Below, piece after piece: positions 7,507 to 9,852 of a stretch of 27,050 nt of DNA. The stretch's first letter is position 1. The number at the start of each line of letters is the position of its first letter. The DNA is from an uncultured archaeon (GTDB taxonomy: Archaea > Asgardarchaeota > Lokiarchaeia > Sigyniarchaeales > Promethearchaeaceae), in the NCBI GenBank assembly GCA_964426185.1, contig CAYRPF010000023.1:11874-38923 (forward strand), read 5' to 3'. The translations under genes were made by a program, and so were the position numbers. Below the pieces are notes generated by a model. The model searched no databases, was not told the origin of the DNA, and worked only from the letters and a program-made list of their open reading frames with translations.

Positions 7507-7563
7507 TAAATTATCTAAGCATATCTCTAAAAGGTTAAAAAATTTTTTATTAAACTTAATTCT

Positions 7564-7589
7564 AAAAGCGCAAGAACCTTGGCGCTTTT
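7564..7589. other. Inverted repeat/hairpin upstream of the M28 gene (operator or terminator)
   Basis: AAAAGCG-CAAG-AAC-CTTG-G-CGCTTTT. Confidence 0.5.
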
Positions 7590-7656
7590 CAAAAAATCGC
7601 TGATAATATTATCCAAATCATATAGAAAGTTGAAAAAAATAAAAAAATAAAGAAAC

Positions 7657-7743
7657 AGGTTAGGATAGAAGATAATCAGATAATTTGCGGAGGATTAATC
7701 GATTATTATGGCTATAGCTCGAAGGAGCAGATTATCCTAACCT
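7657..7743 (-). ncRNA. Candidate ~87-nt small RNA gene (three-way junction) with its own TATA box and oligo-T terminator
   Basis: Perfect 11-bp terminal helix AGGTTAGGATA 7657-7667/TATCCTAACCT 7733-7743 enclosing two hairpins. On the minus strand TTTAAATA (7768-7775) lies ~25 nt upstream of 7743 and T-tracts (7633-7655) lie immediately downstream. Confidence 0.55.
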
Positions 7744-8291
7744 ATATAATAATTATAACATAACAAATATTTAAACCTTCTTGCATTTACCATGGTCTAT
7801 TGGGAACTTATATTGGTAAATAAACATATCAGTAGGGATTATCCGATTAAATTTTACGATGCTATCGAATAGAGCCTAAAATTTATCAAAATATTCTTAA
7901 AATTCATTTTTCTGAACTATTTAAGTTCGATTTCCTTAGGTTGATCATAATTATTAAGGGGTTGATTAAAGGACTAGGGATTTGGGAAGGGTATTTCATT
8001 AGTTTATTTAGGATCGGTTAAATTGTGCTTCGATTCTTGCTAAGTGAAGATGAAAATCAAAACCTCTAAAAAATTAGTAATATGATAGAAATAACGTAAT
8101 TTTTACGAATGTGATCCACCTCACTATTAAAATAACTCCAATCGCATAAATTGAAGTGATATTTTGTGTATTTATCTTTTCCAAAGAATTGATGTACATT
8201 TAAAGATGGGCAGAAGCCCATTTCGGTGTATCCATTAGATTTAAATATTTTTTTTTTAATTAAGGATCAAAAATACTGTAAAGTGGAAAAA

Positions 8292-8987
8292 ATGAAAATA
8301 TTATGGAAAAAAAGAGAATGGCGAAATATTTTATTCATTTTGTTTCTGATATTCACACCCACTTTTTATTATGCCAACTTGGCTTGTACAGATTGCATTT
8401 TTGATTTTGATGATGATAATCACCTTGCCTCTTGGATTAAAGATGTTATTTTTATAGAACTAAGAAAAACAAATAGATCTTGGGTGGATTTTCAGATTGA
8501 TTTTGAGCTGTGGAATCCAGGACCTTTTGTTATTTATTACCAATCTTCTACGACAGCATTAGGTCTTCCGTATTCCATCAAATTAGAAGAAAATGTTAAT
8601 ACAACAATTGAATCAACTGATATATCTGCCAATGATGGGGGAGGTCTAGTTTGCTCAAGTACATTAATTCGTCCGGGAGTGCATAGCTTTACTTGGAATG
8701 GAACAATCTCTTTTAACAACACTTTTGTCAATAACACAGCTCCTATTGGAAAATACACTTTCAAAATTGGAAATGAAAAATGGATAAAAATATACCCTTT
8801 TATTGTGCAAATTGATGAAAAATTTGTAAATAAGACCTATACCGAAAAACCTGTGGATTGGCGGAAACGTACCATTTATTTAGGAAATCCACCTCTCACT
8901 ACATGGCTTGGATTGGGAATAACATCCATTTATTTGACATTAGTCATTCGACGTGAAAAAAATAAAGCAACATTAGAAAAGGCATAA
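8292..8987 (+). CDS. Hypothetical surface protein (N-terminal signal/TM, beta-rich ectodomain, C-terminal TM anchor)
   Basis: Basic N-terminus plus a hydrophobic stretch from ATG 8292, several N-x-S/T sequons, and a C-terminal TM helix followed by RREKNK. Confidence 0.65.
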   Translation: MKILWKKREWRNILFILFLIFTPTFYYANLACTDCIFDFDDDNHLASWIKDVIFIELRKTNRSWVDFQIDFELWNPGPFVIYYQSSTTALGLPYSIKLEENVNTTIESTDISANDGGGLVCSSTLIRPGVHSFTWNGTISFNNTFVNNTAPIGKYTFKIGNEKWIKIYPFIVQIDEKFVNKTYTEKPVDWRKRTIYLGNPPLTTWLGLGITSIYLTLVIRREKNKATLEKA

Positions 8988-9093: not shown

Positions 9094-9852
9094 ATGGGCG
9101 AATATTTTGATCCTCAAATTTCAGTTGCTATAGATTTAATACGTTACCATGAGCATATTGTAGCATTTACCGGAGCTGGAATTTCTACTTCGTCTGGAAT
9201 AGAAGATTTTCGTTCACCTGGGGGTCTTTGGGAGCAATATAACCCGTTACAATATGCAAATTACTCCGTTTTTTTAAAAAAACCTCATTATTACTGGGAA
9301 TTAGAACGGGCCATGATTCCCCGGTTTGAACATGCACGACCAAACAAAGCCCACAAAGCCTTGGTAAAACTGGAAAAAATGGGTAAACTCCAAGCCATTA
9401 TTACTCAAAATATGGATAATTTCCATCAAGAAGCAGGTTCAAAAGTTCCAGTTATCGAACTTCATGGAAATAAAAATCGAGCATATTGCATGGATTGTCA
9501 CACCCCTATTAAGCGTAGTTTTCTTACAAAATGGTTGAAACACAATTCTGGTATACCAATCTGCCCAGTATGTGGTGGTAGAATAAAACCCGATGTTGTG
9601 TTATTTAATGAACCATTTGCGGAAGATTTATTAGAACAAGCTACTGAATTTGCAGAAAATTGTGAAATAATGTTGGTATTAGGAACATCGTTATCAGTTT
9701 TCCCTGCAAATCAAATTCCTTTACTTGCTCGAAAAATGGGAGCAAAGTTAATACTCATCAATAAGGATCCTACTTTCATGGATAAATATGCCACATTGCG
9801 CATTTTAGGAGATTTAGAAACATATCTTCCTTTTTTGGTTTCAAATATTTAG
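9094..9852 (+). CDS. cobB: Sir2/CobB-family NAD-dependent protein deacylase
   Basis: TGAGISTSSGIEDFR, TQNMD, ELHG, CxxC...CxxC zinc site, KPDVVLFNE, GTSLSVFPA and INKDPT. Confidence 0.95.
   Translation: MGEYFDPQISVAIDLIRYHEHIVAFTGAGISTSSGIEDFRSPGGLWEQYNPLQYANYSVFLKKPHYYWELERAMIPRFEHARPNKAHKALVKLEKMGKLQAIITQNMDNFHQEAGSKVPVIELHGNKNRAYCMDCHTPIKRSFLTKWLKHNSGIPICPVCGGRIKPDVVLFNEPFAEDLLEQATEFAENCEIMLVLGTSLSVFPANQIPLLARKMGAKLILINKDPTFMDKYATLRILGDLETYLPFLVSNI

Follow-up and report, generated by a model that had tools for sequence, protein, structure and literature searches.

A candidate small RNA antisense to histone messages in Lokiarchaeia

What is a well-folded, gene-like sequence doing in a 720-bp intergenic gap of a Lokiarchaeial genome? 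The gap is flanked by an M28 peptidase gene on one side and by an unknown gene, followed by a Sir2 gene, on the other. It belongs to the window, the whole 27,050-nt stretch of DNA that was analysed, which comes from a genome (G000) of 3.26 Mb and 92% completeness. An initial annotation read the sequence as an independently transcribed noncoding RNA of unknown class. Conservation, a covarying stem, the position of the TATA box, the U-tract and varied neighbours all argue for such an independent transcript, and no described RNA family accounts for it. The class, however, can be narrowed down: the initial annotation missed an antisense match to histone leaders, which provides a likely class as well as a target.

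The RNA gene and its homologues

All helices of the initial annotation lie where it had placed them: an 11-bp terminal stem (7657-7667/7733-7743), an inner helix (7672-7677/7701-7706) and a hairpin (7717-7728). The 87-mer folds better than 200 of 200 shuffled sequences on both strands (z = -4.2 for plus, -3.9 for minus). In the following list, f1 is the family of the source genome.

7657..7743, minus strand: small RNA body, 87 nt closed by the terminal stem, outer ends approximate (fold, copy number, homologues)
7733..7743, minus strand: terminal stem, 5' strand (covariation, 30 homologues)
7657..7667, minus strand: terminal stem, 3' strand (covariation, 30 homologues)
7672..7678, minus strand: inner helix, 3' strand (fold; similar helix in several f1 homologues)
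7717..7728, minus strand: small hairpin (G000 and G001 only; unconserved)
7701..7714, minus strand: arm 1, a 14-nt complement of the start-codon region of histone mRNAs (11 columns invariant across six f1 homologues)
7687..7695, minus strand: arm 2, exposed loop complementary to GCGGAG in histone leaders (in 66 of 66 homologues read)
7633..7656, minus strand: U-rich tail, likely terminator (T content and T runs of homologues)
7768..7775, minus strand: TATA box, 32 to 25 nt before the stem at 7743 (TATA-like box in f1 homologues; invariant columns)
7776..7784, minus strand: purine-rich element adjoining the TATA box (sequence), which we take to be BRE-like from general knowledge of archaeal promoters
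9094..9852, plus strand: Sir2 deacylase gene (Pfam SIR2; divergent syntenic neighbour in family f1 only)

The RNA gene is present once in the 3.26-Mb genome. A MITE, which the initial annotation would have recognised by many dispersed copies with target duplications, was rejected because there is only this single copy.

DNA, pattern and model searches found homologues, 66 of which were read directly. Within f1, five genomes carry one copy each (G001, G002, G006, G008 and G010), three carry longer copies (G011, G012 and G013) and G003 and G004 have a copy as well. The copies of the last two kinds of strain of interest, G010 and G011, lie at G010:C1:5573681-5573769(-) and G011:C1:1995897-1996016(-); both genomes are probably those of cultured strains. 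In total, 11 of 14 f1 genomes have the homologue once per genome; the three misses are genomes of 76-89% completeness. The sequence of G001, a member of the same genus, was also found in Ca. Harpocratesius repetitus FW102 (Promethearchaeaceae at NCBI). Weak model matches then led to f3, a second family of the same order. A model built from eight f3 seeds matches 104 of 132 f3 genomes, nearly always with one copy, and a joint model adds four genomes (about 108). Four f1 copies receive a score from the f3 model, too, all on the expected strand; two of these scores are good (E = 0.0004 and 0.0025).

Outside these families, a search of f2, f4, f5-f7 and 14 genomes of other classes with model R3 was negative; since the same model overlooked the long copy that G011 is known to carry, this result is weak. 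A loose pattern returned noise only in f2, f4 and two f1 genomes. Viral contigs gave no match. In bacterial genomes and metagenomes, pattern matches were coding sequence or ordinary gene starts, save copies of genomes already in the data set.

Conservation is concentrated in the closing stem and in two short arms. Across 30 homologues, 92% of the cells of the 11-bp stem are paired (about 40% when the stem is slid) and 10 of the 11 pairs show two-sided changes, most of which separate f1 from f3, so that the covariation amounts to few events. The two arms are found everywhere: AGCC(N)AU with A/U-rich flanks and YCUCCRC, or, written differently, AGCCAU(AAU) and CUCC(G/A)C. Arm 2 is predicted to be single-stranded, with a mean unpaired probability of 0.91. 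The small hairpin is unconserved among homologues. The three-way junction that it makes, proposed by the initial annotation, does exist in G000, but apart from this genome only its closest relative has it.

The initial annotation leaned towards the plus strand. This was wrong: the stems of G001, G002 and most f3 copies contain G-U pairs that can form only on the strand equal to the window's minus strand. Judged by these pairs, the minus strand is the sense strand. Its TATA box at the archaeal distance (-32 to -25 from 7743) had been recognised correctly. In eight of nine f1 homologues, 29-32 nt separate the start of a TATA-like box from the stem; in f3 the box sits about 52 nt before it. At the stem end, the T fraction averages 0.72 over 20 nt (52 homologues); T runs stand behind nine of nine f1 stems, and U runs follow the stem in both families. 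Two T7 runs reported for the window are present (7641-7647 and 7633-7639), but they start 9 nt past the stem and not immediately behind it. TATA box and U-tract are conserved, which points to a promoter and a terminator of the RNA's own, independent of its neighbours.

These neighbours differ between genomes. The downstream gene is convergent in G002, G239 and G078. Hence the RNA is not a leader, and a 5' leader of the M28 gene was rejected. In f1 the RNA gene is divergent from the same Sir2 orthologue, a synteny that is absent in f3. Since the M28 gene is equally syntenic and the Sir2 link is lost in f3, we do not count this link as functional. On the opposite strand, AUGGC is kept in 32 of 66 homologues and mini-ORFs range from 4 to 54 codons, so there is no conserved coding capacity. 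We rejected a type I toxin-antitoxin system for want of a conserved peptide, and a U1-like Sm site on the plus strand because it is unconserved and on the wrong strand.

The locus holds three further features. A 253-aa membrane-anchored protein without a Pfam match (8226-8987) lies between the RNA gene and Sir2; this insertion is present in G000 and absent from G001, G010 and G011. A small inverted repeat (7553-7590) between the RNA terminator and the M28 start has a chance-level Rfam match only. Conservation reaches past the TATA box over positions 7744-7900 (about 67% in four f1 genomes), a stretch that may contain regulatory sites or the divergent promoter.

The f3 homologues have peculiarities of their own. 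Their terminal stem (for example L101:1504-1574(+)) is near-invariant, with 44-45 of 52 exact, and five bases of arm 2 recur in its 3' strand. Invariance beyond the need for pairing, together with this repeat, makes a protein site or an alternative fold possible. In about half of them (for example L229 and L236) AGCC and AU are separated by an additional base, which would form a bulge beside the start codon. An A/U-rich hairpin stands between their TATA box and stem.

Complementarity to histone leaders

Searches with both arms repeatedly returned the reverse strand of histone gene starts. The arms had been defined from RNA conservation before the histones were seen. An initial target search with a 10-nt gap limit missed the histones. 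To rank targets, we calculated the duplex energy of the two arms with 4,306 ORF starts of G000 (ORF cut-off 60 aa). The top four are histones, with -38.7 to -32.4 kcal/mol. The fifth ORF start reaches -27.7 kcal/mol, a gap of 4.7. With shuffled arms the histones rank between 269 and 4,099; with the arms of other family members they appear near the top again. Cofolding of the full-length RNA yields a net -10.7 to -14.0 kcal/mol for the four histones versus -0.3 +/- 1.0 for 600 random starts. For some f3 genomes, in which one histone was tested, only weak net binding is predicted (-1.7 to -6 kcal/mol).

The four histone genes share a two-part motif: GCGGAG lies 16-68 nt upstream, and GAUUAUU immediately precedes AUGGC. 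Genome-wide this motif occurs five times, in these four genes and in the RNA gene. Arm 1 matches three histone starts perfectly over 14 nt and the fourth over 12 nt. The 3' strand of the inner helix (7672..7678) has the sequence of the histone target and, in the predicted fold of the unbound RNA, hides half of arm 1. G000 has eight histone genes, four of them without the full site; a fifth histone matches arm 2 and its flank alone, over 13 nt.

Two other G000 sequences resemble the targets. A 76-aa protein (G000:C5:23811(-)), which PF00808 misses but which resembles a divergent histone fold, has GAUUAUU before its AUG and holds target rank 10. A 47-codon zinc-ribbon ORF (G000:C25:9081(-)), under the 60-aa cut-off, has a perfect arm-1 and a near arm-2 site and is a possible non-histone target.

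RNA arm and leader change together between the families. The f1 RNAs carry CUCCGC, and GCGGAG is found in 23 of 42 f1 histone leaders, GUGGAG in none. The f3 RNAs mostly carry CUCCAC; among f3 histone leaders GCGGAG is absent and GUGGAG is found in 33 of 38, a count that is inflated because part of the set was fetched by a pattern holding the motif. Four f3 RNAs keep the G, which pairs with U. The substitutions in the arms are C-to-U opposite G and A-to-G opposite U, both of which preserve RNA pairing; the variants GUC, GCU, CGU and UUCUCC are all wobble-compatible. Because these variants are few and are transitions, they carry modest weight. The change between f1 and f3 is about one evolutionary event, and kin genomes are non-independent.

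Spacing differs in parallel. The f3 leader element lies 14-21 nt from the AUG, as a Shine-Dalgarno site does, and the f3 arms are contiguous. The f1 element lies 16-68 nt from the AUG, and the f1 arms are split by a stem or an insert. At up to 68 nt, GCGGAG is too far from the AUG for a Shine-Dalgarno role, yet it is kept. In f3, GUGGAGG precedes 2 of 231 non-histone ORFs at the loci examined; at this rarity it is not a generic ribosome site. Two histone genes, L140 (G005:C14) and L170 (G096:C96), look frameshifted just after the start, in homopolymer runs; these are probably assembly errors.

Proposed function and rival readings

The conserved bases of the RNA mirror the ribosome-loading region of the histone messages; hence the RNA most likely sets the amount of histone. 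Gene-like anatomy, strand, single copy, conservation, covarying stem and histone-specific complementarity can all be read from the genomes. We think it probable that this minus-strand RNA is a trans-acting repressor, one that reduces the translation of several histone mRNAs by base-pairing with their 5' ends. It would be transcribed as a stand-alone unit. The exposed loop of arm 2 would nucleate on the G(C/U)GGAG element, and pairing would then extend over the start codon while the inner helix is displaced. The covered AUG, in f3 also the covered Shine-Dalgarno site, would block ribosome loading. In this way one RNA could tune four of the eight G000 histone genes together, tailed and untailed types alike.

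Repression is the likeliest sign of the effect, judged by analogy. The archaeal sRNA154 both stabilises and represses (PMC5867862), and in the light of this case sequence by itself leaves the direction undecided. The RNA might thus pair with histone mRNAs and stabilise them, activate them or guide their processing without blocking translation. The f1 arm 2 would pair close to where the message probably begins, some 25-30 nt past the histone TATA box; the f3 stem shows the near-invariance expected of a protein site; three Lsm genes are encoded in G000; and histones make up 3.8-20.8% of Loki protein (bioRxiv 10.64898/2026.07.02.735847). All of this would suit such a role. We consider it unlikely, although it is the main rival reading: arm 1 covers the AUG, the f3 duplex spans Shine-Dalgarno site and AUG in one stretch, which is usually a repressive geometry, and neither a Sm-site consensus in the RNA nor a Piwi match in G000 was found.

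The other readings do without dedicated repression. Arm 2 contains CCUCC, and its predicted pairing with the 16S 3' region reaches -13.1 kcal/mol (the G000 assembly holds 62 nt of 16S and no 23S signature was found in it). Short seeds suffice for the bacterial sRNA IhtA (PMC4355289). The RNA could then be a general anti-Shine-Dalgarno, anti-AUG molecule that damps many strong messages or touches the 16S 3' end, with histones as merely its best matches. The rarity of GUGGAGG before non-histone f3 ORFs makes this improbable, as do the presence of GCGGAG before only 30 of 4,306 ORFs in G000, the low number of motif matches (about 1-7 per f3 genome) and the clear energy gap behind the four histones. 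We see an equally small chance that no antisense pairing takes place and that the shared motif is a protein-binding site of histone genes and the Sir2 region, be it a DNA element, a plus-strand RNA decoy or a mini-ORF. The plus-strand motif does read like a histone leader and points to Sir2 in f1, and the plus strand folds better in G000. Yet it is the minus strand that is bracketed by TATA box and U-tract in both families and that suits the G-U pairs, and the sense strand folds better in 37 of 52 homologues, while the opposite-strand AUGGC and mini-ORFs are as erratic as described above and the Sir2 link does not extend to f3. A functionless remnant, such as an inverted fragment of a histone 5' end, or a MITE would explain the terminal inverted repeat and the likeness to histone leaders, which could record its origin. 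One copy per genome in about 120 genomes, a covarying stem, a conserved promoter and the lack of dispersed copies and target duplications contradict this reading, and we find it hardly credible.

Known RNAs and a parallel case

How does the putative repressor compare with known RNAs? It would act like a known kind, the trans-acting RNAs that mask translation starts, and belongs to no described family; what sets it apart is a set of histone paralogues as target. As the initial annotation had stated, there is no tRNA cloverleaf, C/D box pair or ACA tail; ARAGORN found neither a tRNA nor a tmRNA. The RNA has no C box, and its lone CUGA is unconserved. The resemblance to Y and vault RNAs that the initial annotation had pointed out is one of form. 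These RNAs are of similar size, with paired 5' and 3' ends and a U-rich tail, and the Asgard RNA is like them in all three respects. Both Ro60-binding motifs are absent from the terminal stem on both strands, however, and no Ro60/TROVE protein was matched in the 92%-complete genome (the control was positive in 2 of 14 genomes). The vault B box is absent from the RNA as well; a search for the major vault protein gave no match in G000, nor in the control genomes. In animals, U7 snRNA pairs downstream of the histone 3' stem-loop, carries an Sm/Lsm site and guides cleavage. By analogy only, the Asgard RNA resembles it as a small RNA dedicated to histone messages by base pairing, but it is predicted to pair at the 5' end and lacks an Sm-site consensus.

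Rfam returned nothing at threshold for the RNA locus or for ten homologue loci. Neither Rfam nor the literature searched, with incomplete coverage, describes this RNA or any dedicated RNA for an archaeal histone multigene family. The nearest analogue is IhtA of Chlamydia trachomatis, which represses the histone H1-like HctA through a loop that pairs over the AUG (PMC4355289). Both RNAs are trans-encoded, and the duplex, a predicted one in the Asgard case, covers the AUG of an mRNA for a chromatin protein, with G/C pairs flanking the start codon. IhtA has three stem-loops, makes no use of a Shine-Dalgarno site and acts on an H1-like protein of bacteria. The two sequences are unrelated, and no Rfam match connects them. 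The Asgard RNA, in contrast, has a closed terminal stem and two arms, and its targets are a family of true histone-fold paralogues in archaea. The intergenic sRNA162, sRNA41 and sRNA154 of Methanosarcina mazei (PMC3510493; review PMC5867862) also mask ribosome-binding sites in trans via a single-stranded stretch or loop. Their targets are metabolic or regulatory mRNAs, and no Rfam match links them to the Asgard RNA. Unlike theirs, its site is common to one multigene family and differs between f1 and f3 in step with the RNA.

Cultured Loki and Hod archaea have 6-11 histone genes, histones reach about 20% of their protein and Loki sirtuins deacetylate histone tails (bioRxiv 10.64898/2026.07.02.735847). 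The same study is silent on the control of histone supply and mentions neither small RNAs nor UTRs. A candidate histone regulator, with target sites and an exact predicted pairing, can now be named in the archaea closest to eukaryotes. Since the RNA gene is present in what are probably cultured strains, the candidate is directly testable.

A family of another class, f16 (probably Hodarchaeales), offers a parallel in one of its genera. Its histones are closest to Hodarchaeal HHoB (PDB 9QV5, E = 2e-28), and its histone genes share a different leader. This leader has 25 exact matches in five genomes: 21 are histone starts and three are an antisense copy in a hairpin. The hairpin RNA is unrelated in sequence to the Loki RNA, and its antisense part is a 3' tail instead of a loop. 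An RNA of apparently similar purpose suggests that, near the origin of eukaryotes, histone-based chromatin goes together with control of histone dosage by RNA. That both RNAs are homologues which followed their targets, parts of one ancient RNA-guided histone-dosage system in which an Lsm-bound particle guides the processing or decay of histone messages, is a speculation that we hold to be quite unlikely. If true, it would make this system a functional forerunner of eukaryotic histone-mRNA control such as the U7 snRNP.

L390:1538-1615, plus strand (G175:C52 near 322900-322973): f16 closed-stem RNA gene; also in L394, L406, L407 and 15 more

This gene has its own TATA box and no Rfam match. Folding energy is undecisive about its strand (10 versus 9). 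It is syntenic in three of three genomes checked. Of the 22 genomes of the genus, 19 contain the hairpin, and its 11-nt antisense 3' tail is invariant among them.
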